Sequence record: OQ990040
Length of the DNA: 64,000 nt
Source of the DNA: Escherichia phage SUT_E520
Strand: one strand, 5' to 3'
Shown here: positions 21,605 to 38,843 of the stretch, piece by piece
Numbering within the stretch: position 1 is the stretch's first letter
Layout of the letters: the number at the start of each line of letters is the position of its first letter
Made by a program: the position numbers and the translations under genes
The notes under the pieces: model-generated
What the model saw: the letters and a program-made list of their open reading frames with translations, nothing else
Databases searched by the model: none
Told to the model about the DNA's origin: nothing

Positions 21605-22097
21605 TACTCCAATTATTTTTCTAGACATTGATGGGGTGCTCAATTCGAGCATCTCCCACTATCATGCACCTGATGATGAAAAGATTTTCTTTGGAAGTGA
21701 TTGGGTTTTCAAACCGCTTCTCAAGGCTTTTCAGGACTTTATTCGTCCTTCTCCAATAATGATTGTTGGAGTATCATCTTGGTTCTCTGTCAGAAATGAG
21801 ATGGAGAACGTTCAGATTATGACCGGATTAGGCCTTATCGATCGTTTTCTTGGTACAACGGATTTTACTGGTGGTGGATTATCTAGGGGTAATTCTGTTC
21901 TTCGCTTCGTTGAAAAGCATAAGCTCAAACATTGGTGTGTGCTTGATGATGCGGGTGCTATGATGTATCAGTATCCAACGGTTATAGTCAACGGTAGGAC
22001 TGGTATAAATCTTCAAGATTTAAAAGCTGTTAGCTATATGCTAGAATTTAGCCCAGATCTTGAAATGTGTAAATCCTTACAACAATTTAAGGTGTAA
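21585..22097 (+). CDS. HAD-superfamily phosphatase (possible 5'-deoxyribonucleotidase)
   Basis: HAD motif I IIFLDIDGVLN near the N-terminus; overlaps the Sir2-like stop. Confidence 0.45.
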   Translation: MCQEISNTPIIFLDIDGVLNSSISHYHAPDDEKIFFGSDWVFKPLLKAFQDFIRPSPIMIVGVSSWFSVRNEMENVQIMTGLGLIDRFLGTTDFTGGGLSRGNSVLRFVEKHKLKHWCVLDDAGAMMYQYPTVIVNGRTGINLQDLKAVSYMLEFSPDLEMCKSLQQFKV

Positions 22098-22099
22098 AT

Positions 22100-22528
22100 A
22101 TGTTCAATAATGTATTCTCTAAAGAAGCTAACCCAATTTTGGTTAACTTTTGGCGTACTCTTCCAGCTAGCCTGTATAATGAGGCTATTAACTCTTTGAA
22201 AATATGGTGTGAGAATAACGAAATCTACTTTGCTTTTAAAGATGATATTGATGAAGCCCCCTGTATTGGTTTAATTGTTCAGGTAGAGGAGGGTCTTGAA
22301 GAGATTGTCGGCTGGAAAGAGTTAGATGAAATGGGCTTAGTTTTTGCGTTAAACTATAAGCTGTTTATGCCTGCTAAGCATCGCCTCGTTGTTAACTATA
22401 AAACTAGTGAATCTCCTGGTTTTCAAGTTAATGAACGTTACGGTTGGTCTTACTCACCAGAAGAAGTGAATGATGGTATCCAAAAACTTCGCCGTTTCGG
22501 GTATATGATCCCAGGTTTAACTGCTTAA
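22100..22528 (+). CDS. hypothetical protein, paralog A of a tandem pair
   Basis: 142-aa ORF behind RBS AAGGTG; shares PCIG and ELDEMGLVFALN with the next ORF. Confidence 0.6.
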   Translation: MFNNVFSKEANPILVNFWRTLPASLYNEAINSLKIWCENNEIYFAFKDDIDEAPCIGLIVQVEEGLEEIVGWKELDEMGLVFALNYKLFMPAKHRLVVNYKTSESPGFQVNERYGWSYSPEEVNDGIQKLRRFGYMIPGLTA

Positions 22529-22537
22529 GGAGGCAGA

Positions 22538-22927
22538 ATGGAACAAGTATATTGGCGTCAGATTGACCCTAGTTTGGTGAAACGTGCGGAGAAGCTGCTA
22601 CAACGTTGGTTGGGGGTAAGACAAGCCTCCTTCACTTTTCCTGAGCAGCAAATAGATGATCCATGCATTGGCGTTTTCCTGTCTGGATACGCCAGGGAAT
22701 GGGAACTGGATTGGAATGAGTTGTCTGCTATGGGTTTAATTGTTGCCCTAAATTTCTCTTTGTTCCATCCACGTGGTTTTGCCATATGTCGTGTGCCGGA
22801 TGATGGTTGTTCGCCCCATCTTTTACAGGTGGAAAATGATATTTGGGAGTACACTCCAGATATTCTCAAAGAAGCTAAAGAACAATTAAACCGTGTTGGG
22901 ATATATGTTCCGGGATTAAATGACTAA
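22538..22927 (+). CDS. hypothetical protein, paralog B of a tandem pair
   Basis: 129-aa ORF behind RBS TAAGGAGG; shares PCIG, ELSAMGLIVALN and C-terminal VPGLND with the previous ORF. Confidence 0.6.
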   Translation: MEQVYWRQIDPSLVKRAEKLLQRWLGVRQASFTFPEQQIDDPCIGVFLSGYAREWELDWNELSAMGLIVALNFSLFHPRGFAICRVPDDGCSPHLLQVENDIWEYTPDILKEAKEQLNRVGIYVPGLND

Positions 22928-22953
22928 TGATTTTTATTAGCTGAACTCTGATT

Positions 22954-22980
22954 ACCGAGTCATTTTGGCTCGGTTTTATC
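22954..22980 (+). terminator. intrinsic terminator
   Basis: Hairpin ACCGAG...CTCGGT followed by TTTTAT. Confidence 0.6.
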
Positions 22981-23011
22981 CGTACTCAAGACCAATGATA
23001 GCACCATCCGG

Positions 23012-23040
23012 AAAATTTTACTTGCAGGATGCTCAAAATC
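23012..23040 (+). promoter_or_regulatory. sigma70-type promoter (TTGCAG-17-TATAAT) with ATTGAATTGAGAG leader and no adjacent ORF
   Basis: Hexamers at 17-nt spacing; next plausible start codon is about 500 nt downstream. Confidence 0.55.
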
Positions 23041-23549
23041 TTGATATAATATTTATATTGAATTGAGAGATATTAGTAAAAATTGATTTTGCTAATTTTT
23101 CTTGTTTACAATCCGCGATACGGAACAGTTAGGCTGCCCAATTAAGGGTTGTTTTAACTGTTACGTGTTAGTTTTTAAACAAATAGTTAATAGAATACTT
23201 AGCGATCTGCGTCCCGTAGGAACCCTGGTAAGGCCTCGAAGCAACCTAGATAGAGGTGGTTGTGAAGTGAGACGGGAGGAGTGAAAAACTCCGAGACGTG
23301 ATTCTGTAAGTTATATTGCATCTAGTATGAGCTAGTACATGAAGCATTAGGTGAGCAAATCTGGCTTAGCGGCCATCCTCAAGGATTTGTGCGGTATAGC
23401 AAAGCAGCAGCGCAGCGTGAAAGTGGAAGTTGCCACCCCACTTCAGTATTTGCGATTAATTTGTTGAGAAATTGACAGTAACAGTTGTTCTATTCTTTCT
23501 GAATAGTCCTAAAGAAAACTTATTTCATTTCCAACACAGGAGTATTGTT

Positions 23550-26339
23550 GTGTTCTCAATCCTACAAGGTCATGCAGGATTTCATCGCGATTTAGCCACA
23601 GGCAATTGGCGAGAAGTTAAAGCAGAAGACTATCTTTTTGCTAAAAGATTTTCCTCAAAGCATCCTGAAGGTAAACCAGCTTCAATGCCCTTCAAGTTTG
23701 ATGTAATTGATGAAGTTGATCCTCAAACCCTAGTAGAAATGCTTCCTCTTATGAGACGTTTAACGTCTGACCCTCATATCGTTGCGGTACGAGGTCGATG
23801 TCTTACACCTAAAAATAATGTGCGACGTAAGAAGGGCAACTTTAATGTATCTAACCCAAGTCATATAATTGCAATGGACGTGGATGGTATTGTAGATACA
23901 GGTGGTTGCAACAAGTTTGATCTTGTTGGCATGGCTCGACATATTATTAGAATGTTAAATAGTATTAGTGAGGATATGTTTCCTCTTGATGCAGGGTTTA
24001 TCGCTCATGCATCGTCTTCGGCTGGGCTAAAACCAGGTATCCGAATGCACTTAATACTAGAATCTAATGTTAAAGTAACTCAGGGTCAAATCAAATTCTT
24101 ATTTACATCTATCAACGAAAGTAGTAGACAAAAGTATGGCTTTGATATTGCCGACTTAGCTTATTACTCTTCCGTACAGCTCCACTATTTTGCAGATCCG
24201 TTATTTACCGATGGTATAGTAGATCCGTTTAAAGCGGAGGGTGCTTCACGTCTGGTATTTGTTAAGGGTTCTAAAGTAAATTTACCCAATAATCTGGTTG
24301 ACTATGAAACAACTAGAGGTGAGTTTAAGGAGGAGTTTTACTCTTTACTCGATCAAATTAAAGGTAAAAAAGCTGCCTCTGATAAAGTAGAGGAAACTAT
24401 CAGCGAACTAGAAGAAGCTGAGGATGGAGTGTATCTACGTATCATACCTAAACTCTATCACAGAGCCTTAGAGGATGGTGTTGATTTTGCATGGCTAGAA
24501 AAAGAAATCCGTCCAGCCTTATCAGAATATATTGCAACTAAAGATAACAGTCGCAATATTCAAGATTACTTTAATAACGGTCGTAAACAGGCTCTGAAAG
24601 CATTTGTTAATAATTCTAAACGTGATATACCTGATGTTTTAAAGGGTATTCCACTTAAAAAGCTAGAAACTAATTCTCTAGAAACTGATAACTTCTTGAA
24701 ATTAAATACTGTACCACCAGAAGGTTATATGACTTTTGTAAAAGCAAGTCTAGGTACAGGTAAAACTACAGCGGTTGTGCGTTGGTTAGATTCAGGAGTT
24801 ATTAAAGGTAATTTCTTAGCAATTACCAATACTAGAGCACTGGTATCTTCAAATGCCAAGAAATTTAGTGCAGGACAATATGATAAGTCTGTAGATATGC
24901 TTAATTTTAAGCGGGGTGCTATTGACCGTATGTCCACAACTATTCACTCTTTGCATAAATTCAAGAGTTTTATTGGTCAAATTGATGCAATCTTTATCGA
25001 TGAATGTGATGCAGTAATGAATGACCTATTATTCGCCCCGGTTGTTAAACAACGTCGCGAGTGTATTCAGGTTCTTCGGGATATTCTTGCAACTGCAAAA
25101 ATCATTATATTATCTGATGGGGATATTAGTGCAGAAACAATTGAAGCATATGGTTCTTTGATTGAGTTTGATAAACCAGTAGCATTTTATAACCATCACC
25201 GTAAAATGCTATCAAAAGCTCATGCTTATGAGTTCCCGGATGAATCCAGTATTTGGGTTGCACTTCAGACTTCTCTAGAGATGGGTGAGAAATCTATCCT
25301 AGTATCTGACTGTGGGCCGGATGAACTGAATGAGAAGGGTATGGCATTGCGTCGTAATACGGGTGCGTTAGTTAAGGAAATCCACTCAAATTCTACATCC
25401 GATGTAGATATTCGACGTATTCTGGATTACACAACTAATGAGCTAATTGATCAACAAATTGATTGCTTATTATGTAGTCCATCCGTAACAAGTGGTGTTG
25501 ACTTCAACTATTTTGATAACGTATTCGTTATTACTAGAACCAGCAACCAAGCGCCAAACATGCGTTTCCAAGCAATCAGGCGCGACCGTGGCGCTCAGAA
25601 CATTTATTATTTTATTGATAAATCTACGAGTGGATTCTCCGCAGGTTCTGAGCAATATAACATTGACGAAGGTTGGCTGGAGTTAGCACAACAATTATAC
25701 GCACGTCGTAGAGAGCTGGAATCTAGGAATTATACTAGTACTTTACGTTATTACTTGCTTGATCAGGGTGCAACTATTGATATTTTCAGTGAAAGCTGGG
25801 GAACTATCGAAGGTGCTGGGAAGGAATATACGGAAGAGCGAATCAAAGCTATTTTATATTCAACTCCTGATTATTGTGCTCCACGTCATGCTGATGCGTA
25901 TGAAGCTAAACTACTTCTTGTTCGCTACTATCATCTTGAGTCTATTAAAGATGTAACAGTTGAGCATGTTGAACAATATATCAAGGATAAACCTAATGAT
26001 CGAGCGGCATTCTTCCATAAAATGCACGAGATGTTCTGGGAAGATATTAAGAAGTGTTCAAATGTCACTATCAAACCATTCATAGAAGCTCTGAAAGGTA
26101 AGAAGAAAGATTTCTTCCTTAAAACAGGTCAGAGTGCTAACCCAAAATATGCCAGAATGTATCTTGGTATGATGGGTATTGGTAAGGATATGAACACTGA
26201 AAATATTGTAGACTGGTACAGAACCTATTGTAAAATCGAGTGTATGCCAATCCCCTATAAGTTTATGACTGATGAGGAGAAACATATGCATGATGAAGCA
26301 ATGGCAGAGCTAGGTGCTAGAAATGACAGTGAAGAATAA
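23550..26339 (+). CDS. large replication-associated protein: N-terminal AEP/PrimPol-like domain plus P-loop NTPase (helicase-like)
   Basis: ORF track 23472..26339; GTG start at 23550 behind RBS CAGGAG; DxD (IIAMDVDG), sxH-like (GIRMHLIL), Walker A ASLGTGKTT, Walker B IFIDECD. Confidence 0.6.
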   Translation: MFSILQGHAGFHRDLATGNWREVKAEDYLFAKRFSSKHPEGKPASMPFKFDVIDEVDPQTLVEMLPLMRRLTSDPHIVAVRGRCLTPKNNVRRKKGNFNVSNPSHIIAMDVDGIVDTGGCNKFDLVGMARHIIRMLNSISEDMFPLDAGFIAHASSSAGLKPGIRMHLILESNVKVTQGQIKFLFTSINESSRQKYGFDIADLAYYSSVQLHYFADPLFTDGIVDPFKAEGASRLVFVKGSKVNLPNNLVDYETTRGEFKEEFYSLLDQIKGKKAASDKVEETISELEEAEDGVYLRIIPKLYHRALEDGVDFAWLEKEIRPALSEYIATKDNSRNIQDYFNNGRKQALKAFVNNSKRDIPDVLKGIPLKKLETNSLETDNFLKLNTVPPEGYMTFVKASLGTGKTTAVVRWLDSGVIKGNFLAITNTRALVSSNAKKFSAGQYDKSVDMLNFKRGAIDRMSTTIHSLHKFKSFIGQIDAIFIDECDAVMNDLLFAPVVKQRRECIQVLRDILATAKIIILSDGDISAETIEAYGSLIEFDKPVAFYNHHRKMLSKAHAYEFPDESSIWVALQTSLEMGEKSILVSDCGPDELNEKGMALRRNTGALVKEIHSNSTSDVDIRRILDYTTNELIDQQIDCLLCSPSVTSGVDFNYFDNVFVITRTSNQAPNMRFQAIRRDRGAQNIYYFIDKSTSGFSAGSEQYNIDEGWLELAQQLYARRRELESRNYTSTLRYYLLDQGATIDIFSESWGTIEGAGKEYTEERIKAILYSTPDYCAPRHADAYEAKLLLVRYYHLESIKDVTVEHVEQYIKDKPNDRAAFFHKMHEMFWEDIKKCSNVTIKPFIEALKGKKKDFFLKTGQSANPKYARMYLGMMGIGKDMNTENIVDWYRTYCKIECMPIPYKFMTDEEKHMHDEAMAELGARNDSEE

Positions 26340-26556
26340 AAAATGGGAAACAAGGAAGTTTCCAGTAAAAGAACGTAAAGTTCCTGTTTACGACACTTCG
26401 GAAAAGCTATGTAGGGTGGTACCGCATAGATTAGCTGGCATCCCTAACATATCCGAGTGGTTACTTAAACAACGGAAAACAAACGTGTCTCTTCGTATCG
26501 GCTTTGAATTAGATAAAGTCTATGCTGAACTTGCTTCTTTACTCAAGGAATCGTAA
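26323..26556 (+). CDS. hypothetical protein
   Basis: ORF track 26314..26556; ATG at MTVKNKKWE overlaps the end of the large gene. Confidence 0.45.
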   Translation: MTVKNKKWETRKFPVKERKVPVYDTSEKLCRVVPHRLAGIPNISEWLLKQRKTNVSLRIGFELDKVYAELASLLKES

Positions 26557-26564
26557 AAATTTAT

Positions 26565-26593
26565 TTGCATAGTGCAAAAAATTTCTGTATAAT
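26565..26593 (+). promoter_or_regulatory. sigma70-type early promoter (TTGCAT-17-TATAAT) with ATAAATTTGAGAGAGGAG leader
   Basis: Hexamers at 17-nt spacing followed by the conserved leader and RBS. Confidence 0.65.
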
Positions 26594-26624
26594 AGATTCA
26601 TAAATTTGAGAGAGGAGTTTAAAT

Positions 26625-27329
26625 ATGGCTGGTTCTCGTAGAAAGAAACATATCCATGAAATCCCGGATGAAGTCTTTAAAAAGGTTATAGAGCATCTGG
26701 AGAACGGTGGTACCAAGAAAGCAGCATGTGAAATGCTCGGCGTATCATCCAATCCAACTATGGAAAGGATGATTGAAGAATGGCAAGACCGCCAGATTCA
26801 AGTGGCTGAAATGAAGAAAAAGAAACGTGGCACACTCATTGAAGGCATTGAGTTAGCTAACGTTATTGAACAGTATTTGTCTGGTGATTCTTTTGAAGAA
26901 ATTGCCGATCGTAATTACCGCTCTGTAGCAATGGTTAAATCTGTTCTGGAACGATATGGTGCTCTGCTTCGTTTGAATGATATTGTAGATCCATTGAATC
27001 CTCCAATTATTCCTGATGATGCTGTAGCAGAAGAATTTGCAGTTGGTGAGCTTGTTTGGGTTCCTGGATACCAGTGTATCGGTGAAATCAAAAAAGCAAT
27101 GGATAACCCTGTTGGTTGTTACCGTGTATGGCTTCTATCAGAAGGCAAACAACAGAACGTTCATTATATGAATTACGAGCTGGCTTCTGTTAAACATCTG
27201 GAAAAGTTAGGGGTAGACGTAAAATCTCTAGGATATAAGTGGACTCGTGAAGAAATTATTACGTTGATTAACGAAGCTGTTAAGGCTGCCCTGAAACTTG
27301 ATAAAGAAAAAGGAAAACGCCGTGAGTAA
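26625..27329 (+). CDS. hypothetical protein with N-terminal helix-turn-helix
   Basis: 234 aa; GGTKKAACEMLGVSSNPTMERM resembles an HTH. Confidence 0.55.
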   Translation: MAGSRRKKHIHEIPDEVFKKVIEHLENGGTKKAACEMLGVSSNPTMERMIEEWQDRQIQVAEMKKKKRGTLIEGIELANVIEQYLSGDSFEEIADRNYRSVAMVKSVLERYGALLRLNDIVDPLNPPIIPDDAVAEEFAVGELVWVPGYQCIGEIKKAMDNPVGCYRVWLLSEGKQQNVHYMNYELASVKHLEKLGVDVKSLGYKWTREEIITLINEAVKAALKLDKEKGKRRE

Positions 27330-27573
27330 GCTAACAGATTTGCTTAAAGATGGGGAAGTAAAAACTCTATATCGTAGAAGCTGGGATAATGACAATAATG
27401 GCTTAGTGTTACTAACTTTAGACGCTGACTCAGATGTAGTTACCCAACATACCTGGGTAGCTGGTAATTATCCCTATAGTGAGGTTGTTACGTTAACAGT
27501 ATGCGAAGCTATTGCTGACGATTGGGAGATTGCCAGCATTGATGATATGCTTGCTGTTGGCCTGGTGGAGTAA
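27320..27573 (+). CDS. hypothetical protein
   Basis: ORF track 27298..27573 (TTG); GTG at 27320 behind AAGGAAAACGCC chosen; start uncertain. Confidence 0.4.
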
Positions 27574-27590
27574 CTACAGAAAAATTTCAG

Positions 27591-27619
27591 TTGCTTAATC
27601 CTATAATTCTTGATATAAT
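27591..27619 (+). promoter_or_regulatory. sigma70-type early promoter (TTGCTT-17-TATAAT)
   Basis: Hexamers at 17-nt spacing upstream of the 27677 gene. Confidence 0.65.
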
Positions 27620-27676
27620 ATTCTCATAGTTTGAAAGAACTATTCTGTTTAATTCTTAATTAAGGAAATATAAAAT

Positions 27677-28087
27677 ATGACTACTCCAACTCAGTGGACT
27701 GATGAACTGTTCGAAAAAATGTCTTCCGAATACGTTGCTCGTATGGAGCAATTCCCAGAGGATGAACGTCCGGGTGTTAGCATGGAAATTGTTAGCGAAA
27801 TTGCTCAGGAAAATGGTGTAACTCCGAACGGTTTTCGTATGAAGTTGACCAAAGCAGGTGTATATATCAAGAAAGCTGCTGGCTCTGCTTCTAAATCTAG
27901 TGCATCTACTGGAGAAAAAGCTTCTGGTGGTTCTCGCACTTCCAAAGCCCAAGCTCATGCCGATCTTCGTTCAGCATTCTCTGATGCTGGCCTAGCACCA
28001 GATTTTCTGGATGATGCAATTATCGACAAACTGACCGGTAAAGCGGCTGCTCATCTGGCAGAAGCAATCCGAGCTATCACTAAGTAA
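27677..28087 (+). CDS. hypothetical protein
   Basis: 136-aa ORF behind RBS TTAAGGAAAT; preferred over the overlapping minus ORF 27656..27958. Confidence 0.6.
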   Translation: MTTPTQWTDELFEKMSSEYVARMEQFPEDERPGVSMEIVSEIAQENGVTPNGFRMKLTKAGVYIKKAAGSASKSSASTGEKASGGSRTSKAQAHADLRSAFSDAGLAPDFLDDAIIDKLTGKAAAHLAEAIRAITK

Positions 28088-28123
28088 TTTTTAGATAAAT
28101 CCACCAACAAAAGGAACACAGTT

Positions 28124-28420
28124 ATGACCAAAGCTGAAATTATCGCACAATGTGAAAAATTTGGTGAGTTTTATCTTCATTACGAGAAACTTCGTCAGAA
28201 AGGAACCACGTACCTTCAGGGTACGATGGAATTTGATCCAGCCCAAGATAAATATCTGGCTGAGCGTATTAAACGTGAACGTATTCGTAAAGCGAAAGAT
28301 GATGAGATCCTTGTCTTCTCTCGTACTAATGATAGCTTCCGTTTTATTCCTGTCGAGAAAGTCCGTCGTGTGACTAGCCTCCAATCAGAGTTAGATCGTG
28401 CTTCTCCAGTAGGCCGATAA
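28124..28420 (+). CDS. hypothetical protein
   Basis: 98-aa ORF behind RBS AAAAGGAACA, followed by a terminator. Confidence 0.6.
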   Translation: MTKAEIIAQCEKFGEFYLHYEKLRQKGTTYLQGTMEFDPAQDKYLAERIKRERIRKAKDDEILVFSRTNDSFRFIPVEKVRRVTSLQSELDRASPVGR

Positions 28421-28430
28421 GAAACCAATT

Positions 28431-28452
28431 AGCCCCTATATGGGGCTTTTTG
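28431..28452 (+). terminator. intrinsic terminator
   Basis: Hairpin AGCCCC-TATAT-GGGGCT followed by TTTTTG. Confidence 0.65.
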
Positions 28453-28470
28453 TGTATTTGGGATATGTAA

Positions 28471-28779
28471 ATGAGCGAACAGGTAAATCAAAACTATGAA
28501 GGACACGTTGATGACCAGTCCATCATACTTTGGGAGAAGGAGGGGGAACAAGTAAGATTAACAGTATCTGAATTTCGTGGGAATCTATACATGGGTATTC
28601 GTTACTGGCTTCTTGATATTAATGATGAATGGTTTCCAACGAAATCTGGCTTCTCTTTTCCTTACACCCTAGAAACAACATCACAGCTTTTCTATGCGTT
28701 TACACAGATTCTTAGCGAATCTGAGGTTTTACATGAAGTACAGAAACGAGCTGAAGAACTCAAAGCCAAGAATGCCTAG
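28471..28779 (+). CDS. PC4-like ssDNA-binding protein
   Basis: 102 aa; LTVSEFRGNLYMGIRYWLLDINDEWFPTKSGFSFP parallels the PC4 C-terminal domain pattern; a PC4 homologue is described for phage T5. Confidence 0.6.
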   Translation: MSEQVNQNYEGHVDDQSIILWEKEGEQVRLTVSEFRGNLYMGIRYWLLDINDEWFPTKSGFSFPYTLETTSQLFYAFTQILSESEVLHEVQKRAEELKAKNA

Positions 28780-28796
28780 TTCTTGGCTTTTTCTTT
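28765..28796 (+). terminator. intrinsic terminator overlapping the PC4-like stop codon
   Basis: 8-bp hairpin GCCAAGAA...TTCTTGGC followed by TTTTTCTTT. Confidence 0.7.
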
Positions 28797-28806
28797 ATAA
28801 ATGTAT

Positions 28807-28835
28807 TTGCTTTCAACTCAGTTTTGTTATATAAT
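28807..28835 (+). promoter_or_regulatory. sigma70-type early promoter (TTGCTT-17-TATAAT)
   Basis: Hexamers at 17-nt spacing with TAAATTAATGAGAGGG leader. Confidence 0.65.
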
Positions 28836-28865
28836 ATTTATATAAATTAATGAGAGGGTTGCAAA

Positions 28866-29138
28866 GTGAAAAAGATAAGTATAAGTACACTTAAACCTTT
28901 CCCGTACATCGGACAGCCTCTTATACTTATGTGGGAGGGGAAGATTAATGGAGAAAAGTATACTAAAACTAGAAGTGGGTATAAGCTGATTTCACTTCAT
29001 TACGAAAAAGAAGTATTAGTAGCTGAAATATACTCTCCGTTGTCAGATAGGCTAGTAAAAACTACATATTTGCATCTTTGCAAAAATTATACATGGCACG
29101 GATCCACTAGACAACCCACATACTATGAGGCAGAATAA
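28866..29138 (+). CDS. hypothetical protein immediately upstream of the ligase
   Basis: 90-aa ORF with GTG start behind RBS GAGAGGG; stop abuts the ligase start. Confidence 0.45.
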   Translation: MKKISISTLKPFPYIGQPLILMWEGKINGEKYTKTRSGYKLISLHYEKEVLVAEIYSPLSDRLVKTTYLHLCKNYTWHGSTRQPTYYEAE

Positions 29139-30110
29139 ATGACCAATGTAAAAGACTTTATTAAACGTTGCCAAGAAGCATATTATCAAGGTATGTCTTT
29201 AATCTCTGATGAAGAGTATGATTGCCTGGTAAAACGCTTTCCGTTAGAAGAAGAGATCGGACCTAAGGGCGATATTCCACATCTGTATCGTATGTATTCT
29301 TTACAGAAAGTTTATTATAATCGTGGAGATAAACCTCCGTTTAACCCGTTAGGTCAAGTAGAAACTGATAAGTTAGATGGTTGTGCAATTTCTCTGTTAT
29401 ATATTAATGGCGAATTTGTTCAAGCACTAACTCGTGGTAATGGTATTCTAGGGAATGATGTCACAAGCAACGTAAGATTGCTGAATATCCCTAAAAAGAT
29501 TTCCCAAAAAGTACCTACTCAAATCACTGGTGAAGTTCTAATTACAAAAGAAGTAGAAAATAAACGTAACTTTGCCTCTGGTGCTATTAACCTCAAAGAT
29601 AGTGATGATTTTGTACAACGTATCGGAGAAGGTGGTTTAATCTTCGTTGCATATGGTATCCAGTGTTCTGCTGAATCTGTAGGTATTACAGAAGCATATT
29701 TAAAAGATATGCTTTGGCTGGAGAATGAGAACTTCTTAACAGTTGTTAATGTGCGTTCCTTCTTTAAATGGATTCCGACGGATGGTAAAGTTGTTCGTAT
29801 TAATGACAACAACAAATTCTTCCGTGAAGGCTGGACTAATAAATTCCCTCGTGGAGCATTCGCTATTAAAGAGGATGAAGAAGGCGAGGTTACAACTCTT
29901 ACTAAAGTTGAATGGCAGGTAGGGGCTTCTGGTAAAGTAACTCCAGTTGGTTATTTCGAACCGGTAATTATTGATGATGCTACAATTGTTAAAGCGACTC
30001 TTAATAACGTTGATTATATTAACTCTCTTGATCTAGAGATCGGTTGCCAGATTCGAGTGATTCGTGCTGGTGGTGTAATCCCGTGCATAGTAGAGCGAGT
30101 ATACGAGTAA
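29139..30110 (+). CDS. ligA: NAD-dependent DNA ligase, N-terminal part (adenylation and OB domains)
   Basis: Catalytic lysine motif ETDKLDGCAISLLY and TRGNG; ends before the Zn-finger/HhH/BRCT region. Confidence 0.8.
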   Translation: MTNVKDFIKRCQEAYYQGMSLISDEEYDCLVKRFPLEEEIGPKGDIPHLYRMYSLQKVYYNRGDKPPFNPLGQVETDKLDGCAISLLYINGEFVQALTRGNGILGNDVTSNVRLLNIPKKISQKVPTQITGEVLITKEVENKRNFASGAINLKDSDDFVQRIGEGGLIFVAYGIQCSAESVGITEAYLKDMLWLENENFLTVVNVRSFFKWIPTDGKVVRINDNNKFFREGWTNKFPRGAFAIKEDEEGEVTTLTKVEWQVGASGKVTPVGYFEPVIIDDATIVKATLNNVDYINSLDLEIGCQIRVIRAGGVIPCIVERVYE

Positions 30111-30253
30111 TACATAACCCTTTGCTACCCATCTACCATATCGGAATTATAAAGTGGTTATTGACATTTTCGCCGCTTAGGTATATACTAGTATCATTCA
30201 GTTGAGGGATAGAAAGTTATGGCGAGGGTAAGCAAAGTTAGTTAAAATTGTAG

Positions 30254-30282
30254 TTGCTAAATGCTTAAATACTTGCTATAAT
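30254..30282 (+). promoter_or_regulatory. sigma70-type promoter (TTGCTA-17-TATAAT) between the two ligase halves
   Basis: Hexamers at 17-nt spacing; a second TTGACA-17-TATACT candidate lies near 30162. Confidence 0.6.
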
Positions 30283-30309
30283 ATTTATATAAATTGATAA
30301 GGAAGAAAT

Positions 30310-31083
30310 TTGATGAAAATCGAAATTCCAACACAATGTCCCTCTTGTGGTTCTAAGCTAGATCTTGTCAACGGACAATTATTTTGTCGGAATAAGTCCA
30401 ACTGTCCAGCGCAATCAAGTAAGTTAATTGAGAACTTCTGTACAAAAATGAAGTTAAAGGGTTTTGGTCCAAAAACTATTGAGAAGCTGGAGCTGACGAA
30501 GATTTCAGAACTATTTTACCTAACCGAAGAAGATTTGGTTAGAGCCGTGGGTAGCAAGGTTGCCGCTAAGTTAATTAGCGAATTAAATACTAAAGTTCGC
30601 GGAGACATTGACTTTGGTTCAGTTCTCGGTTCTTTAGGAATCCCTCTAATTGGAGAGGTTGCAGCAAAGAAATTATCCCAAAATTGCACTAGCTTCCACG
30701 ATGTGAAGGCTGACGGCAAGGCTGGAGAAAATTATAAAGCCTGGCTAAATTCCCCACAAGGCAAGGATGTTATCGAATTACCGTGGAAATTCTCAACTGG
30801 TGCTAAAGCTAAAACCGTCGTTACTGATGATTTAGTTGCCCAGCCAAATGGAATCGCGGTATGTATTACCGGATCTTTGCAAGACTTTGCAAATCGAACG
30901 GATGCAACAAACTATTTAGAAGGTCTAGGATATACGGTTAAGAAATCTGTTACCAAAGACGTCAAATACCTAATCTGTGAGGATGAATCGAAGCGTTCTT
31001 CCTCATCTTATAAGAAAGCCGAAACGAATGGGATAGAAATCCTGTCGATTAAAGAACTATTGGAGAAAAATAATAATGTCTAA
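30310..31083 (+). CDS. ligB: NAD-dependent DNA ligase, C-terminal part (Zn-finger, HhH, BRCT)
   Basis: Cys4 motif CPSCGS...CRNKSNCPAQ, HhH-like GFGPKTIEKL and GIPLIGEVAAKKL, BRCT-like C-terminus. Confidence 0.75.
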   Translation: MMKIEIPTQCPSCGSKLDLVNGQLFCRNKSNCPAQSSKLIENFCTKMKLKGFGPKTIEKLELTKISELFYLTEEDLVRAVGSKVAAKLISELNTKVRGDIDFGSVLGSLGIPLIGEVAAKKLSQNCTSFHDVKADGKAGENYKAWLNSPQGKDVIELPWKFSTGAKAKTVVTDDLVAQPNGIAVCITGSLQDFANRTDATNYLEGLGYTVKKSVTKDVKYLICEDESKRSSSSYKKAETNGIEILSIKELLEKNNNV

Positions 31084-31843
31084 ACTGAACTGGAACGTAG
31101 AAGGTGTAACCGAGTCTCTGAAAGCAAAAGCCACTGCTCTGGGTGTTTCTGTAATCTCTCAAGAACAAGTAGCCGCTATCGCCGCTGAACTGGCTGCTGA
31201 AACTGGCAAAGATGTTACCGCTCGCTCTGTTGGCTCTAAACTGCGTAAAGAAGGTTTTGAAGTACAGAAAGCTAACGAAGTACAGAAATCCCCGTGGACT
31301 CCTGAGCAGGAAGCTGAACTGGTTGATTTCCTGAACGCTCATGCTGGTCAGTATACCTATGCTGAAATCGCTGCTGCTGTAGCTGGTGGTCAGTTCGGTG
31401 CTAAGCAGGTACAGGGTAAGATTCTGAGCCTGGAAATGACCGCTTCTGTTAAACCAACTGAAAAAGCTGCTGCTGTTCGTTCCTTTACTCCGGATGAAGA
31501 AACTGATTTTGTTAATCAGGTTGTTGCTGGTGCTACTATTGAAGCTATCGCTGCTCACTTCGGTCGCAATATTAAGCAGATCCGTGGTAAAGCTCTGAGT
31601 CTGCTTCGTGAAGGTCGTATCGCTGCTATGCCGGTACAGGAAACCTCAAGTGCTAAAACTCGTGAAGATCTGTTAGAAGGTCTGGATCTGGTTAACATGA
31701 CTGTTGCTGAGATCGCTGAGAAAACTGGTAAATCTGAGCGCGGTGTTAAATCTATGCTGTCTCGTCGTGGTCTGGTTGCTAAGGACTATGATGGTGCCGC
31801 TAAGCGTGCTAAACTGGATGCAAAAGCTGCGGCTGCTGAATAA
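31076..31843 (+). CDS. hypothetical Ala-rich protein with three internal HTH-like repeats
   Basis: 255 aa; repeats YAEIAAAVAGGQFGAKQVQGKILSL, IEAIAAHFGRNIKQIRGKALSL, VAEIAEKTGKSERGVKSMLSRRG; E. coli-optimal codons. Confidence 0.6.
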   Translation: MSKLNWNVEGVTESLKAKATALGVSVISQEQVAAIAAELAAETGKDVTARSVGSKLRKEGFEVQKANEVQKSPWTPEQEAELVDFLNAHAGQYTYAEIAAAVAGGQFGAKQVQGKILSLEMTASVKPTEKAAAVRSFTPDEETDFVNQVVAGATIEAIAAHFGRNIKQIRGKALSLLREGRIAAMPVQETSSAKTREDLLEGLDLVNMTVAEIAEKTGKSERGVKSMLSRRGLVAKDYDGAAKRAKLDAKAAAAE

Positions 31844-31858
31844 TCTGGTAAATTAAAC

Positions 31859-31893
31859 CTAAGGGGAGGGGGCTATGCTCCTTCCCCTTTTTG
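31859..31893 (+). terminator. intrinsic terminator
   Basis: Hairpin AAGGGGAGGG...CCTTCCCCTT followed by TTTTTG. Confidence 0.65.
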
Positions 31894-31925
31894 CATTTAG
31901 AAGGCACGAAAGCGTGCAAAGGAGA

Positions 31926-33398
31926 ATGACCTTGTTTAACGTGCAAGCTGTAGTGTTGAAGATGCTTCTAGCTTCCGAACAGAAGCAAATAGCATTGGAA
32001 ACATTCTCAAAACTGCATAAAGATCATTTTAATGACGCTTTCTCCTCAATTTACCAAGCCGTCCAGAATTATTATAAAAAATATAACACAATGCCGTCCA
32101 TTGACGCACTTATGCTTGAAGCTAATAGGAACGCCCGCCTTTCTCAAGCCCTAGTCGTCTTAGCTAACACTCAAATTCCAGAAGTGAGCATGGAACAGGC
32201 ACTTGAAGTCCTAGAGGCCGAGTATACACAGGATTTATTCCTGAAGCTTCTAGAAACAGACGTGCTTCAAGATTTAACAATGCTGGATCAGGGAGAAATT
32301 CTCAACCGAGTTGCCTCCCTTCACTTAAAATTAGAAGAGAAAGTAACGAATACTGGAAAAGTATTCAACGCAGATAACATGCGTATTTTCCAGAGAGAAG
32401 AAGATACCAAACTGAACTTAATCGCTCTTGGTATTTGTAATGAGTTCGATGCTCAAATTGGTTTAGCTCGCACAGAAACGTTACTGCTTGGTGGTTGGCG
32501 TGGTACTGGTAAATCCATTATCTGTTCAAACATACAGGTTCAGCAATATTTGAATGGAGATATTGCTCCATACTTCTCAATTGAGATGAAAGAACATGAA
32601 GTATTTAGACGTAATCTAGCCATGTTAGCCGGGGTATCAGCACTAGCAATGCGTAATAATACTCTAGAAGGTGCAGCTCTATTGAGATTAGCCAGAACTA
32701 GAGCTAGAATGTTCAACGGGGGTGAAGAGCTTTTCGATAACTTCGTTAAACAGTATACAATGGCTAAGATGAGTGATTTCTACGATATGGAGAGTAAGCT
32801 AATAGAGGGGTATGAACTACATACTCCTATGATTATCGTTTATGACCCTGAACTGTCCATTACAACAGTTGACGTAGAATTAAATAAATTAGTTGCTAGA
32901 TATGGTGATAAAGTTACAGTAGCTTTACTGGACTATATTAACCAAACCCGACTTCCAGATTCTAAAACCATTGATATGTATGACTGGAAGGAACAGATGG
33001 TTGTTAGCTCGTCTTTCAAATCCATCTGCCAGAAACATAACGTGGCTGGCGTAGCTCCCTACCAGATCGATCAAGATGGTAGAACACGTATGTCAAAGGG
33101 GATTCTTGATTCCGCAGACATGGCTGCTAATCTTAATGCTGCTAAAGCTGATAATGGTCAAGGTGCTATTATGTTTGACTTTGTTAAGACTCGTTCTTCT
33201 GATAGCGTGAAGTTTATGCCTAAAATGAATTGGGAAACTCTGCGAATGGATAATACTACCAACCTAGCAATGGAAGATATATCTCAAATGGAAGCTGAGT
33301 TCGTTATCCCTATTGAGAAGGATAAGCCGGCTCAACCTAAACGTGCTAAGAAAGACAAAACTGAAAATTCAACAGGTGAACAGGCCAGCGATATATGA
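31926..33398 (+). CDS. replicative DNA helicase (DnaB-like, RecA fold)
   Basis: ORF track 31875..33398 runs through the terminator; start placed near MTLFNVQ; Walker A LLLGGWRGTGKS. Confidence 0.55.
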   Translation: MTLFNVQAVVLKMLLASEQKQIALETFSKLHKDHFNDAFSSIYQAVQNYYKKYNTMPSIDALMLEANRNARLSQALVVLANTQIPEVSMEQALEVLEAEYTQDLFLKLLETDVLQDLTMLDQGEILNRVASLHLKLEEKVTNTGKVFNADNMRIFQREEDTKLNLIALGICNEFDAQIGLARTETLLLGGWRGTGKSIICSNIQVQQYLNGDIAPYFSIEMKEHEVFRRNLAMLAGVSALAMRNNTLEGAALLRLARTRARMFNGGEELFDNFVKQYTMAKMSDFYDMESKLIEGYELHTPMIIVYDPELSITTVDVELNKLVARYGDKVTVALLDYINQTRLPDSKTIDMYDWKEQMVVSSSFKSICQKHNVAGVAPYQIDQDGRTRMSKGILDSADMAANLNAAKADNGQGAIMFDFVKTRSSDSVKFMPKMNWETLRMDNTTNLAMEDISQMEAEFVIPIEKDKPAQPKRAKKDKTENSTGEQASDI

Positions 33399-34285
33399 GT
33401 AGAATAACAGAACTACTTGATCTGAAAGGCATTGAATATAAAGACACAGGTGGGGACATCCTCATCTGTTGTCTCAATCCAGATCATGACGATAAACACC
33501 CAAGTTTGCGTATTGATCCTGAAACAGGTATTATGCACTGCTTGAGTTGTGGCTTCGGTAAAGGTATACCGAGCATTTACCATTATTTTAATGAGACTCA
33601 GTACCGACAGTCTCCAAGACTATCGCAGGTACGTAAAAAGATTTCAGAGATTAGGAATGGATCTACAAATCTTGCAATTCCTGAATCTGCTTACCTTTTC
33701 GAAGGTGATTTCCGAGGTATAAGTTCTAAGACCTTGAAGAAATACTTTGCTTTCCAACACCAAGCAGACTGGGAAGGCAGAATTGTATTCCCAATCACAG
33801 ATGCTGTTGGACGCAATATCCTATTTTTGGGTCGTTCTATAAACAGTTCTGCCCCTCCTAAATACTTAGTAAAACCAAAACAAGTTTCACCACCGATTTT
33901 CCCTGTACGATATAATACTCCAGTTCTTATTCTAGTTGAAGGTATCTTTGATATGCTGAACCTAGAGGATAATGGTATAGACTATGCTTCTTGCTGCTTT
34001 GGTACACATCAGTTTACTTCAGATAACATTGCAGATAAGTTTAGCCCTTATATTATTGCTGGTGTAAAAGTTGTTGTTATCTTACTAGATAATGATGCTT
34101 CTGGTAATAAAGCTGCACAAGCGTTGGCCAAGCTAATTCGTACAAAAACGCGTTTAACACCTGTAGTGGCTAACTTTCTTCTACCCGAAGGTAAAGACCC
34201 TGGTGACTTAAATAAAGAAGAAATTGATATGTTAGCAAAACGTATTGAAATTTTAGTTGCTGAATCGCTTAAAGATTTGGTATAA
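33395..34285 (+). CDS. DNA primase (CHC2 zinc finger plus Toprim)
   Basis: Zn-finger CCLNPDHDDKHPS...HCLSCGFGKG; Toprim VEGIFD and LDNDASG; ATGA overlap with the helicase. Confidence 0.7.
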   Translation: MSRITELLDLKGIEYKDTGGDILICCLNPDHDDKHPSLRIDPETGIMHCLSCGFGKGIPSIYHYFNETQYRQSPRLSQVRKKISEIRNGSTNLAIPESAYLFEGDFRGISSKTLKKYFAFQHQADWEGRIVFPITDAVGRNILFLGRSINSSAPPKYLVKPKQVSPPIFPVRYNTPVLILVEGIFDMLNLEDNGIDYASCCFGTHQFTSDNIADKFSPYIIAGVKVVVILLDNDASGNKAAQALAKLIRTKTRLTPVVANFLLPEGKDPGDLNKEEIDMLAKRIEILVAESLKDLV

Positions 34286-34286
34286 T
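34257..34286 (+). promoter_or_regulatory. sigma70-type promoter (TTGCTG-18-TATAAT) at the end of the primase gene
   Basis: Hexamers at 18-nt spacing followed by an inverted repeat TGGTAAGT...ACTTACCA and RBS AGAGGAG. Confidence 0.5.
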
Positions 34287-34347
34287 ATATTGGTAAGTTA
34301 GAGAAGAAACACTGAAGTTATACTTACTTACCAAGAGGAGATTAAAT

Positions 34348-36784
34348 TTGAAAATCGCAGTAGTTGATAAAGCTCTAAATAACACTCGTTACGATAAACA
34401 TTTCCAGCTATACGGCGAGGAAGTTGATGTATTTCATATGTGTAACGAGAAGTTATCTGGTCGTTTGCTTAAAAAGCACATTACTATTGGAACACCAGAA
34501 AATCCATTTGATCCGAATGATTACGATTTTGTTATACTAGTAGGTGCTGAACCTTTCCTGTATTTCGCAGGTAAGAAAGGCATTGGTGACTATACTGGTA
34601 AACGTGTAGAATATAATGGATATGCTAACTGGATTGCAAGTATCAGCCCAGCCCAGTTACACTTTAAGCCTGAAATGAAACCAGTTTTCGATGCAACAGT
34701 AGAGAATATCCACGATATTATCAATGGTCGTGAAAAGATTGCAAAAGCTGGTGATTACCGTCCTATTACTGACCCTGATGAGGCGGAAGAATATATCAAG
34801 ATGGTGTATAATATGGTTATCGGACCTGTCGCATTCGACTCCGAAACCTCAGCACTATACTGTCGAGATGGTTATCTGCTTGGTGTTTCTATATCTCACC
34901 AAGAGTATCAGGGTGTATATATCGATTCTGATTGTCTCACAGAGGTTGCAGTATATTATCTCCAGAAAATTCTGGATAGTGAAAACCACACTATTGTTTT
35001 TCACAACTTGAAGTTTGATATGCACTTTTATAAGTACCATCTGGGACTTACTTTTGATAAAGCACATAAAGAACGCAGGCTCCATGATACAATGTTGCAG
35101 CATTATGTTCTAGATGAGCGTCGTGGTACTCATGGCTTGAAATCTCTAGCAATGAAGTATACCGATATGGGTGACTATGACTTTGAACTAGATAAGTTCA
35201 AAGATGATTACTGCAAAGCACATAAAATCAAGAAAGAAGATTTCACCTATGATTTAATTCCGTTTGATATTATGTGGCCTTACGCTGCAAAAGATACCGA
35301 TGCCACCATACGCTTGCACAACTTCTTCTTACCAAAAATTGAGAAGAATGAAAAACTTTGCAGTCTGTATTATGATGTTCTAATGCCTGGTTGTGTATTT
35401 CTCCAGCGTGTTGAGGATCGTGGTGTACCAATTTCTATTGATCGCTTGAAAGAAGCTCAGTATCAGTTAACTCATAATCTGAATAAAGCTCGTGAGAAAC
35501 TATATACTTATCCAGAAGTCGTTCAGCTAGAAAAAGATCAGAATGAAGCGTTTAATCCAAACTCTGTTAAGCAGCTACGTGTTCTTCTGTTTGATTATGT
35601 TGGCTTAACTCCAACAGGTAAATTGACGGATACTGGAGCAGACTCTACAGATGCAGAAGCTCTGAACGAACTGNNNNNNNNNNNNNNNNNNNNNNNNNNN
35701 NNNNNNNNNNNNNNNNNNNNNNNNNNNNNNNNNNNNNNNNNNNNNNNNNNNNNNNNNNNNNNNNNNNNNNNNNGGGTATCGTGTAATCGCATGGGACTTA
35801 ACAACTGCGGAAGTTTATTATGCTGCTGTTCTATCTGGGGATAGAAATATGCAACAGGTATTTATCAATATGAGAAATGAACCTGATAAATACCCGGACT
35901 TCCACTCTAACATCGCACACATGGTATTTAAACTCCAATGCGAGCCTCGTGATGTTAAAAAGTTATTCCCAGCTCTGCGTCAGGCTGCTAAGGCAATTAC
36001 CTTCGGTATTTTGTATGGTTCTGGCCCAGCTAAAGTAGCTCATTCTGTTAACGAAGCTCTTCTGGAACAGGCTGCTAAGACAGGAGAACCGTTTGTTGAA
36101 TGTACTGTTGCGGATGCGAAGGACTATATCGAAACTTACTTCGGTCAGTTCCCACAGCTTAAGCGTTGGATTGATAAGTGCCACGATCAGATTAAGAATC
36201 ATGGATTTATCTATAGTCACTTTGGTCGTAAGCGTCGTCTGCACAATATCCACTCCGAAGACCGTGGTGTTCAGGGTGAAGAAATTCGTTCTGGATTTAA
36301 CGCAATCATTCAGTCTGCTTCCTCTGATAGCCTCCTTTTAGGTGCTGTAGATGCAGATAATGAGATCATTTCTCTTGGCCTAGAACAAGAGATGAAGATT
36401 GTTATGCTGGTTCATGACTCCGTGGTTGCTATTGTTCGTGAGGATTTGATCGACCAATACAATGAAATCCTGATTCGTAATATTCAGAAAGACCGTGGTA
36501 TCAGTATTCCTGGCTGTCCGATTGGTATTGATTCAGATTCTGAAGCTGGAGGTTCTCGTGACTATTCTTGTGGTAAGATGAAGAAACAGCACCCATCAAT
36601 CGCTTGTATTGATGATGATGAATATACTCGTTATGTCAAGAGTGTATTACTTGATGCAGAGTTCGAGTATAAGAAACTAGCTGCAATGGATAAAGAGCAT
36701 CCAGATCATAGCAAATACAAGGATGATAAGTTTATTGCTGTATGTAAAGATTTGGATAACGTAAGAAGGATTCTCGGTGCTTGA
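34348..36784 (+). CDS. DNA polymerase, family A, interrupted by the unresolved gap 35674..35773
   Basis: N-terminal part MKIAVVDKAL (TTG start) with 3'-5' exonuclease region, then after the N-run YRVIAWDLTTAEVYYAAVLSGD (motif A-like); frame shifts across the gap. Confidence 0.8.
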
Positions 36785-37274
36785 TTTCAAATTGCCCGTC
36801 TATACGTTACGGGCGTTTGTATCAATTGAGCAAGAAGGTGATTATTCCGTAATTACAACAAGATATAATAAATATGTGCTAGATAACAGGAAGTTGCCTG
36901 GCACGTTTTCTCAACGTAGGCTCATTCTATTTGAGAAACGGAAAGAATTACCGTACAAGCTCTATCCTATTAGAGGTAGAATATCAATGTTGTCCCAATT
37001 AGTTGGGTCAAAGCGTAGCCAATTTATAGATTCTGATGGAAATCTTATTAATTGGAAGAAAACTACGTTCTATGATGTTGTTACCTCTAAAGTTTTGAAT
37101 TCAGCTAGAATTTATAACGGAAAATACCAATGCTATGTAGCTAAAGTTCCATACCCATTTGTATTATCCTATGTTCCAGCTTATATAAGCTATATTCTGG
37201 TAAATAATAGCCCTGTTATTTATCAAGTCCATCAAGAGGAGCCTGAAATTCCTAGACTTAGAATAAAATTATGA
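36777..37274 (+). CDS. hypothetical protein
   Basis: 165-aa ORF with GTG start overlapping the polymerase stop. Confidence 0.45.
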   Translation: MLDFKLPVYTLRAFVSIEQEGDYSVITTRYNKYVLDNRKLPGTFSQRRLILFEKRKELPYKLYPIRGRISMLSQLVGSKRSQFIDSDGNLINWKKTTFYDVVTSKVLNSARIYNGKYQCYVAKVPYPFVLSYVPAYISYILVNNSPVIYQVHQEEPEIPRLRIKL

Positions 37275-38623: not shown

Positions 38624-38705
38624 ATGATGTATAATATATACATAAATTTGAGAGAGAAAGTTTCGGATTGATAAGAAAGTCCGAAGCAGAAAAATAAAAA
38701 TTTTA

Positions 38706-38735: not shown

Positions 38736-38843
38736 TATATACATAAATTCGAGGAGAAAACAAAAATTAAATTCTTCGATTATGAAAAGCTATACTTACT
38801 AGCTAGAGGAAATTCCGACCTAATTATCAAGCTATTCAAAAGA

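Follow-up and report, generated by a model that had tools for sequence, protein, structure and literature searches.

The locus described here lies in a window of 64,000 nucleotides from Escherichia phage SUT_E520 (record OQ990040). The phage is T5-like, and in this region its sequence is 100% identical to that of Escherichia phage T5_ev212. Two genes, ligA and ligB, are encoded in the same direction but in different reading frames, and are separated by a spacer that carries two promoter sequences. The features of the locus and of its immediate surroundings are listed in Table 1.

Table 1. Features at and around the ligA/ligB locus of SUT_E520 (positions are those of the window).
Feature	Position	Strand	Description
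Intrinsic-terminator-like hairpin	28762..28790	+	Terminator scan: 12-bp stem, then T run
Upstream early-type promoter	28807..28848	+	TTGCTT-17-TATAAT with downstream ATTTATATAAATT; read from sequence; predicted to drive the 90-aa ORF and ligA
Accessory ORF	28866..29138	+	90 aa; abuts ligA (TAA followed directly by ATG)
ligA	29139..30110	+	323 aa; catalytic subunit: domain Ia, nucleotidyltransferase (NTase, adenylation) domain, OB fold
Spacer	30111..30312	+	202 bp; non-coding; 32% G+C; several stops in all three frames
Distal promoter	30161..30189	+	TTGACA-17-TATACT; scan, 11/12 matches; T5 'P-K 28b'
Proximal promoter	30254..30295 (hexamers 30254-30282)	+	TTGCTA-17-TATAAT; 10/12 matches; TG-extended -10; downstream ATTTATATAAATT; T5 'P-K 28a'
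ligB ribosome-binding site	30299..30305	+	AAGGAAG; read from sequence; 7 nt before ATG 30313
ligB	30313..31083 (ATG)	+	256 aa; DNA-binding subunit: C4 Zn finger, HhH domain, flexible linker, BRCT domain
D5-type DNA-binding protein gene	31076..31843	+	From annotation; Pfam HTH/sigma-70 region 4; 8-nt overlap with the ligB stop

The domains of LigA are recognised by Pfam, which finds the adenylation domain (PF01653, DNA_ligase_aden, 2.2e-23) followed by the OB fold (PF03120, DNA_ligase_OB, 3.1e-22, residues 252-321). The adenylation lysine is K78, in the sequence KLDG (the KxDG motif I), and the residues K78, R99, E132 and K244 align with K115, R136, E173 and K314 of E. coli LigA, so that the catalytic residues are intact. 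Domain Ia aligns with the same domain of the T. filiformis ligase and of LigA from phage PR1, and contains the YY...SDxEYD motif (AYYQGMSLISDEEYDCL, residues 14-30), which is the motif that confers NAD+ specificity. The dN/dS ratio of 0.05-0.13 indicates that ligA is under purifying selection.

In LigB, Pfam matches the BRCT domain (9e-8) and the HhH domain (HHH). The Zn finger was read from the sequence and consists of four cysteines, C9, C12, C25 and C31, which are invariant in 69 homologues. The AlphaFold2 model has a pLDDT of 92, and matches both chain B of the PDB entry 9HU3 and the C-terminal half of E. coli LigA (2OWO). This gene is also under purifying selection (dN/dS 0.07-0.2). The allele found here is 771 bp long, the length in most relatives being 780 bp.

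The locus thus contains the NTase motifs, domain Ia, the OB fold and the Zn/HhH/BRCT region expected of the LigA family, and departs from it in not being a single polypeptide. The presence of two ORFs instead of one is the defining departure of the T5-type subfamily. A first-pass annotation had described a ligase split into two separate ORFs, and the ORF coordinates and Pfam domains bear this out. Its limits for the catalytic half and its end for ligB agree with Table 1, but it began ligB at position 30310. This is TTG, the start annotated in AY692264; ATG 30313 is likelier, given the AAGGAAG sequence 7 nt upstream, the annotation in LR597659, and the fact that chain B of the PR1 enzyme begins MKIQIPT. 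It also placed the beginning of the whole feature at 28866, and in doing so took in the 90-aa ORF, which is not ligase.

The location of the split was determined by alignment with E. coli LigA. Residues 214-320 of LigA align with residues 284-390 of the E. coli enzyme, and residues 3-122 of LigB with residues 402-529. LigA and LigB therefore abut on the E. coli sequence, which places the split at about residue 393/400, in the linker between the OB fold and the Zn finger, with no ligase residues missing. Because the break falls exactly in this interdomain linker, the two chains between them supply every domain of a compact LigA. The genes are separate, are divided at this linker and are kept as neighbours, as in the T5-type heterodimeric ligases.

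The structure of a homologous enzyme has been solved. PDB entries 9HU3 and 9I5I (released 2026-01-14) are entitled 'PR1 phage heterodimeric DNA ligase in complex with 21-mer nicked DNA containing phage nick sequence', and the proteins are 54-56% identical to both window proteins (tblastn). A phmmer search matches chain A of 9HU3 to LigA residues 4-321 (3.3e-103) and chain B to LigB residues 1-252 (1.5e-81), chain B being 100% identical to the protein of Providencia phages PR1 and PSTCR5. Our literature search found no paper on 9HU3, on the PR1 ligase or on split or heterodimeric ligases, and the entry is known to us from its title and chain composition; no experiment on the LigA and LigB proteins of SUT_E520 itself was found. 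The first-pass annotation had expected the ligase to assemble from two polypeptides, and for PR1 this is directly supported by the two entries. By homology with the PR1 enzyme, LigA and LigB of SUT_E520 would form a non-covalent heterodimer that clamps the nicked duplex, LigA contributing the NAD+-sensing domain Ia, the NTase domain with K78, and the OB fold. Sealing would then follow the three usual steps, namely adenylation of the enzyme from NAD+, transfer of AMP to the 5' phosphate, and closure of the nick. We consider it very likely that the region encodes a two-gene ligA/ligB heterodimeric NAD+-dependent DNA ligase of the kind typical of T5-like phages (Demerecviridae).

NAD+-dependent ligases are mostly single polypeptides, and it might be supposed that one ligase gene has here been broken by a sequencing error or by a recent inactivating mutation. 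The distant phage matches are indeed in one piece: among the tblastn matches to phages listed, those below 30% identity are unsplit, but those of at least 44% identity that cover both halves are always in two pieces. The gap has the same length of 202 bp in 29 of 31 independently sequenced Tequintavirus-like loci, the two-ORF arrangement occurs in about 1,000 phage records, and all the Demerecviridae phages examined have the split, even where protein identity falls to 41-45%. The stops in every frame of the gap, the different frames of the two genes, the dN/dS values of both halves (0.05-0.2), and the ribosome-binding site, start codon and promoters that ligB has of its own all argue in the same direction. 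The idea of an artefact or pseudogene has a negligible probability and is already refuted by the comparative data. The first-pass annotation was correct in describing a non-coding stretch of about 200 bp; a frameshift or sequencing error is excluded by the closed frames, the constant length of the gap and the number of records with two ORFs.

A single polypeptide could in principle still be made from two adjacent, co-oriented ORFs, if an RNA intron were removed, if ribosomes bypassed the gap, or if the two proteins were trans-spliced. The T-even phages offer precedents, with their group I introns and, in gene 60, a translational bypass of 50 nt. However, 202 nt is short for a group I intron, and a search of Rfam at E values up to 1 found no RNA family of any kind between 28600 and 31300, so that introns, riboswitches and known sRNAs were dropped as candidates for the gap. 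Nor is there anything for an intron or intein to account for, given that LigA and LigB abut on the E. coli sequence and that no ligase residues are missing between the ORFs. Neither protein has an intein-like extension or an extra domain, in Vibrio phages there are two to three whole genes between ligA and ligB, and the solved PR1 structure consists of two chains and is named a heterodimer. A single final polypeptide is thus extremely unlikely, and two separate subunits remain the preferred reading.

The two proteins could alternatively be independent of each other, LigA being a self-sufficient minimal ligase and LigB having some other job, for example as a BRCT/HhH DNA-binding replication factor acting with D5 and the helicase. 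Minimal ligases that have no extra DNA-binding domains do exist, such as the Chlorella virus ligase. In E. coli LigA, on the other hand, the Zn-HhH module is reportedly needed for nick binding and sealing, according to mutational studies from the Shuman laboratory. An independent role would be in keeping with the place of ligB, first in line after tandem promoters of its own and with its end overlapping the D5 gene, and with the observation that a C-terminally truncated NAD+ ligase, LigN-deltaC, still self-adenylates (PMC1684257). Against this, the two genes occur together, given that 1,038 of the 1,157 matching phage records cover at least 80% of the LigA+LigB concatenate, and they remain neighbours even where one to three other genes stand between them. 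The PR1 homologues, moreover, crystallise together on nicked DNA. Independence of the two proteins is on this evidence very unlikely, and we continue with the heterodimer.

The spacer contains no ORF of 40 aa or more, and the terminator scan found no terminator-like site within it (30111-30312). Across 28 close relatives it has 0.012 mismatches per site, compared to 0.053 for ligA and 0.036 for ligB, and is thus three to four times better conserved than the flanking genes. This is equalled by several other intergenic regions in the block, and the conservation is therefore ordinary regulatory constraint, not a sign of a hidden element. The stretch between the two promoters shows no conservation in distant relatives. 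A tiny ORF in the spacer (MARVSKVS, 30229-30255) and a predicted leader hairpin were both treated as chance. The spacer is a regulatory region, and not debris.

Both promoters in the spacer have sigma-70 -35 and -10 hexamers with a spacing of 17 nt, at positions annotated in T5: 'promoter P-K 28b' of AY692264 maps to 30141-30215 of the window, and 'promoter P-K 28a' to 30234-30308. The first-pass annotation had identified both as promoter-like, with positions right to within one base, and the T5 record names both. A scan for promoters over the region as a whole was not significant, with 9 sites against 7.8 expected. The two spacer promoters are nevertheless above chance, given that their positions are conserved in relatives down to 45% protein identity and that they are named in the T5 record. 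The distal promoter is conserved in KpGranit, L036, PR1 and AhSzq-1. The evidence that P-K 28a and P-K 28b function as promoters is their annotation in GenBank; they were reportedly characterised by Gentz and Bujard in 1985.

The window has 12 copies of the motif ATTTATATAAATT, where 0.18 would be expected. The promoter upstream of the 90-aa ORF shares with the ligB promoter an identical 19-nt motif made up of the -10 and downstream sequence, and a 'putative promoter' is annotated by T5 st0 at the equivalent place. The sequence ATATT in the discriminator region has been reported as a signature of all T5 early promoters (PMC7472727). The proximal promoter has it (TATAATATT); the distal one does not (TATACTAGT).

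The terminator-like hairpin stands after a PC4-like gene (28471-28779; Pfam PC4), and marks the end of the preceding transcription unit. As there is no terminator before the spacer promoters, ligB and the genes downstream (D5, a dnaB-type helicase and a primase) would probably be reached by transcripts from two sources, namely read-through from the promoter at 28807 and initiation at the two spacer promoters. The D5-type gene comes after ligB as the next cistron in the unit headed by the spacer promoters, and does not belong to the ligase. The 90-aa ORF has no Pfam match, is found at the loci of about 2 of 28 close relatives and is absent from T5 st0, and for these reasons it was rejected as a part of the ligase. 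It has homologues of 39-40% identity in Klebsiella phage KpGranit and Pantoea phage AAS21.

Fission of one compact ligase gene is the most likely origin of the split, to judge from distant T5-like phages that keep an unsplit gene of 555-578 aa at the same position. The unsplit ligases are metagenomic (P0109, P0099, P0031, P0052 and P0117), and show 35-43% identity to LigA along its whole length and 32-41% to LigB. Their genes lie between PC4-like or T5 A2-like genes on one side and D5-like, DnaB and primase genes on the other; the unsplit ligase of L045 is followed by the same 8-nt overlap and the same gene order. The choice of fission over fusion rests on parsimony. A neighbour-joining tree of the LigB domain is star-like, with the unsplit forms scattered among the split ones, and as it carries no support values it cannot tell a single fission from several. 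Each of the unsplit genes has one strong promoter-like site, within codons 318 to 402, as is expected by chance in AT-rich DNA; this is a very weak hint of an internal promoter that predates the split.

As to how the fission came about, a free-standing homing endonuclease gene could have inserted in the OB/Zn-finger linker and later been lost, leaving the spacer behind ('genes in pieces', as in Aeh1 nrdA). T5 is said to carry nine homing endonucleases (PMC4319617), and a 218-aa GIY-YIG ORF (Pfam 1.1e-5) is found directly after ligA in Salmonella phage SP3 and in two other records. In SP3, the last approximately 200 nt of ligA have 58-77% identity while the rest has 92-100%, which is the pattern of a co-conversion tract. 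However, the endonuclease is present in just 3 of 437 records and is confined to SP3-like relatives, which suggests that it came recently to a locus where the split already existed. No remnant of such a gene is left in the spacer, whose conserved content is the two promoters, and the genes found in the gap in other phages are not endonucleases: they comprise a NADAR gene, a DprA-like gene and small unknowns, and apart from the SP3 GIY-YIG gene Pfam finds no nuclease among them. An endonuclease origin of the split is accordingly doubtful.

The fission may also have been selected and not merely tolerated. Promoters in the linker would put ligB first in the D5-helicase-primase unit and so uncouple its dose and timing from those of ligA, with LigB perhaps limiting or directing the sealing of nicks. 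T5 virion DNA retains site-specific nicks, and the DNA in the PR1 crystals is described as 'phage nick sequence'. We put forward this selective explanation as a speculative one that is probably not correct. LigB might, in addition, have a second role in the replisome that is independent of LigA.

Modest additions to what was known are that the split characterises the family as a whole and that the pair of promoters in the gap is kept down to 45% protein identity. The occasional use of the split site as a home for a GIY-YIG homing endonuclease or other cargo genes is a further modest addition. The uncultured T5-like phages with an unsplit compact gene at the same position provide a natural before-and-after pair for gene fission.

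Several known systems can be compared with the locus. The nrdA gene of Aeromonas phage Aeh1, reportedly split by the mobE homing endonuclease (Friedrich et al. 2007, PNAS), is similar in being a phage enzyme made as two polypeptides that reassemble into an active enzyme, and SP3 resembles it in having a homing endonuclease at the ligase split. It differs in that the spacer of the window and of nearly all its relatives contains promoters and no endonuclease. E. coli LigA (PDB 2OWO) has the same order of domains (Ia, NTase, OB, Zn, HhH, BRCT) and the same catalytic residues, but is one chain of 671 aa compared to 323 + 256 aa, with about 25% identity, and the NTase and HhH domains are shorter in the phage. 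The unsplit ligases of uncultured T5-like phages (P0109 and the others) share the compact size and the neighbours of the window ligase, but have one continuous ORF through the OB/Zn-finger linker and no spacer.

The ligase of the Providencia phage PR1 has two chains with the same domain split and full-length homology in both, and its locus has two promoter-like sites at matching positions in a gap of 192 bp; it comes from a different genus and host than SUT_E520. The closest comparison is with T5 itself, for which a two-gene ligase with promoters in the spacer has been annotated and published since 2005. Wang et al. (2005, Virology 332:45) are said to be the source for T5 ligA and ligB. The T5 genes are T5p114 (ligA, AAU05253) and T5p115 (ligB, AAU05254), with accessions given in PMC3632103, and the wording 'the split NAD+-dependent DNA ligase of T5' has been cited since 2005-2006 (PMC1684257). 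In T5 both genes, their order, the 202-bp spacer and its two promoters are as in the window, and the spacer and the start of ligB are approximately 99% identical in DNA sequence, the differences being the 771-bp ligB allele of the window and its 90-aa ORF between the upstream promoter and ligA, which T5 st0 lacks.

The window comes from a T5-like phage. Positions 28700-31300 match Escherichia phages T5_ev212, SUT_E1520, SUT_E420 and EC148 at 100% identity, and over 400 genomes of Tequintavirus and Epseptimavirus at 90-99%. The split ligase of such phages is an already known feature: the split in T5 has long been in print (2005; PMC1684257), accessions for ligA (AAU05253) and ligB (AAU05254) are given in PMC3632103, and the ligase of phage Stitch is described with A and B subunits (PMC4319617). 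The observation of a ligase split into two ORFs, made in the first-pass annotation, is confirmed here, and its interpretation as two genes is supported. Coordinates are collected in the table.

Features of the ligase region in the window and in related loci (L-numbers)
Feature	Location	Strand	Remarks
ORF90	28866-29138		90 aa, GTG start, between upstream promoter and ligA; stop abuts ligA ATG
ligA	29139-30110	+	323 aa; Pfam NAD-ligase adenylation and OB-fold domains
ligA-ligB gap	30111-30312		202 bp; several stops per frame in all three frames
Distal promoter-like site (scan)	30161-30189	+	TTGACA-17-TATACT
Proximal promoter-like site (scan)	30254-30282	+	TTGCTA-17-TATAAT, TG in front
ligB	ATG 30313 (TTG 30310) to 31083	+	Pfam BRCT and HhH families
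Conserved intergenic regions	27574-27676, 28421-28470, 30111-30312, 31844-31874
DprA-like gene	L003 3127-3687; L005 2801-3361; L004 947-1507
NADAR-domain gene	L040 2153-2809		Proteus phage; PF08719, 1.8e-31
GIY-YIG homing-endonuclease-like ORF	L034 2184-2840		Salmonella phage SP3 (= L044); 218 aa, directly 3' of ligA
Unsplit compact ligases, uncultured T5-like phages	L045 5790-7490; L048 5001-6674; L049, L050, L051

A sequencing error or pseudogene as the cause of the split is excluded: the gap is closed in all frames, ligA and ligB lie in different frames, 29 of 31 close loci have a gap of exactly 202 bp, and dN/dS is 0.05-0.2 for both genes, which are under purifying selection. The two-piece form is also widespread. 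A tblastn search of phages with a LigA-LigB concatenate as query matched 1,157 records. Among the matches listed, every one with at least 44% identity over both halves is in two pieces (Tequintavirus, Epseptimavirus, Sugarlandvirus, Pantoea phage AAS21, the Vibrio Thalassavirus group and Aeromonas Shenzhenvirus), and those below 30% identity (jumbo phages and others) are in one. The spacer has 0.012 mismatches per site, against 0.053 in ligA and 0.036 in ligB. Most intergenic regions of the ligase block have 0-0.026, against 0.024-0.13 in the genes they separate (28 relatives). Because nearby regions are similarly conserved, conservation of the spacer is taken as ordinary regulatory constraint.

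The first-pass annotation started the feature at 28866, which does not hold, as 28866-29138 is an ORF (ORF90) unrelated to the ligase. It has no family match, is absent from T5 st0 and is present in about 2 of 28 close relatives, and was therefore rejected as a ligase part. Klebsiella phage KpGranit and Pantoea phage AAS21 carry homologues of 39-40% identity, and the ORF has the appearance of a mobile accessory gene. The start proposed for ligB, 30310, is a TTG annotated in the T5 st0 record (AY692264), but the ATG immediately following it is backed by an AAGGAAG ribosome-binding site 7 nt upstream, by the annotation of LR597659 and by the N-terminus (MKIQIPT) of the solved chain B from Providencia phage PR1.

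The two promoter-like elements claimed for the gap were found by scanning. They rank as the best two on the plus strand over 3.2 kb, a region in which the total of such sites is not above chance expectation. In AY692264, features named 'promoter P-K 28b' and 'promoter P-K 28a' correspond to window 30141-30215 and 30234-30308. A 19-nt -10/downstream motif, TATAATATTTATATAAATT, is common to the proximal promoter and the promoter 5' of ORF90 and ligA; with up to 3 mismatches it has 12 copies in the window (0.18 expected), and it includes ATATT, reported as a T5 early-promoter signature (PMC7472727). Despite ligase protein identities of only 41-45% and divergence of the surrounding DNA, both promoters lie at matching positions in KpGranit, L036, PR1 and Aeromonas phage AhSzq-1. 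The annotation, common motif and positional conservation make two gap promoters credible. No terminator-like site was found by scanning the gap, so ligB could also be reached by read-through from upstream. The 12 copies of the TATAAT-ATTTATATAAATT-type motif lie at 648-7351 (-), 19993-38749 (+) and 59744 (-); these strand switches track divergent early-gene blocks, so that the motif can serve as a map of T5-type early promoters across the window.

Outside the close loci, between one and three small genes can occupy the gap. The split site serves as a cargo slot: of two related Proteus phages, one has a NADAR-domain gene there and the other (L042) a 60-aa ORF in its place. Vibrio Thalassavirus phages Brizo and Wyman have a DprA-like gene there, which in AAS21 lies upstream of ligA, kept in the neighbourhood with its position changed. 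In SP3 and two other records the gap contains a GIY-YIG endonuclease ORF. The last ~200 nt of SP3 ligA, beside the endonuclease, are at 58-77% identity and the remainder at 92-100%, which is the pattern expected of a co-conversion tract. An origin of the split from a homing endonuclease is possible but not favoured, since the endonuclease is rare and apparently recent.

A phmmer search with LigB against 1.84 billion representative proteins gave more than 100 clusters of stand-alone LigB-like proteins (230-265 aa), together with ten longer proteins (555-578 aa) whose LigB-like part starts at about residue 311-334. The latter are 35-43% identical to LigA across its full length and uninterrupted through the OB/Zn-finger linker. 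Gene order around all five that were traced to contigs is T5-like: the ligase is preceded by a PC4-like or T5 A2-like gene and followed by a D5-like gene and then, where the contig is long enough, by DnaB, primase and PolA. In L045 the D5-like gene is 37% identical to that of the window and likewise overlaps the ligase stop by 8 nt. Bacterial LigA, too, is one chain, so parsimony favours fission of a single gene in the T5 lineage; a neighbour-joining tree without support values could not tell one such event from several. The coding linker of L045 contains, at precisely the position of the gap promoter in T5, a TG-extended TATAAT with ATATT behind it, and in the other unsplit genes the best promoter-like sites are at varying positions. 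That the promoter came first and the split later is a guess.

LigA 214-320 aligns with E. coli LigA 284-390, and LigB 3-122 with 402-529, so that the LigA end (...IPCIVERVYE) and the LigB start (MKIEIPTQCPSC...) meet in the OB/Zn-finger linker. By alignment the two-piece ligase is complete, with no residues absent at the junction. LigA has the domain Ia motif and residues aligning with catalytic K115, R136, E173 and K314. LigB begins with a four-cysteine Zn finger, with all cysteines invariant across 69 homologues. Its AlphaFold2 model (pLDDT 92) consists of a Zn-finger and HhH module joined to a BRCT domain by a disordered linker (~160-180), and matches the C-terminal half of E. coli LigA on nicked DNA (2OWO). 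The top PDB matches are 9HU3/9I5I (released 2026-01-14), 'PR1 phage heterodimeric DNA ligase in complex with 21-mer nicked DNA containing phage nick sequence', with LigA matching chain A (3e-103) and LigB chain B (1.5e-81); Providencia phages vB_PreS_PR1 and PSTCR5 both encode chain B at 100% identity. An intron, intein or translational bypass giving one polypeptide is excluded to the extent that sequence analysis allows, given the complete junction, the whole genes inside the gap of other phages and the two chains of the PR1 structure. Independent functions for LigA and LigB are unlikely: the genes co-occur and remain adjacent (80% or more of both is covered in 1,038 of the 1,157 records), and by analogy with the PR1 co-complex the chains would act together. 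The same homologue supports the earlier suggestion that two polypeptides would assemble into the ligase. Whereas E. coli LigA is a single chain, the window ligase has the same domains over two, homologous to those that form the PR1 complex on nicked DNA.
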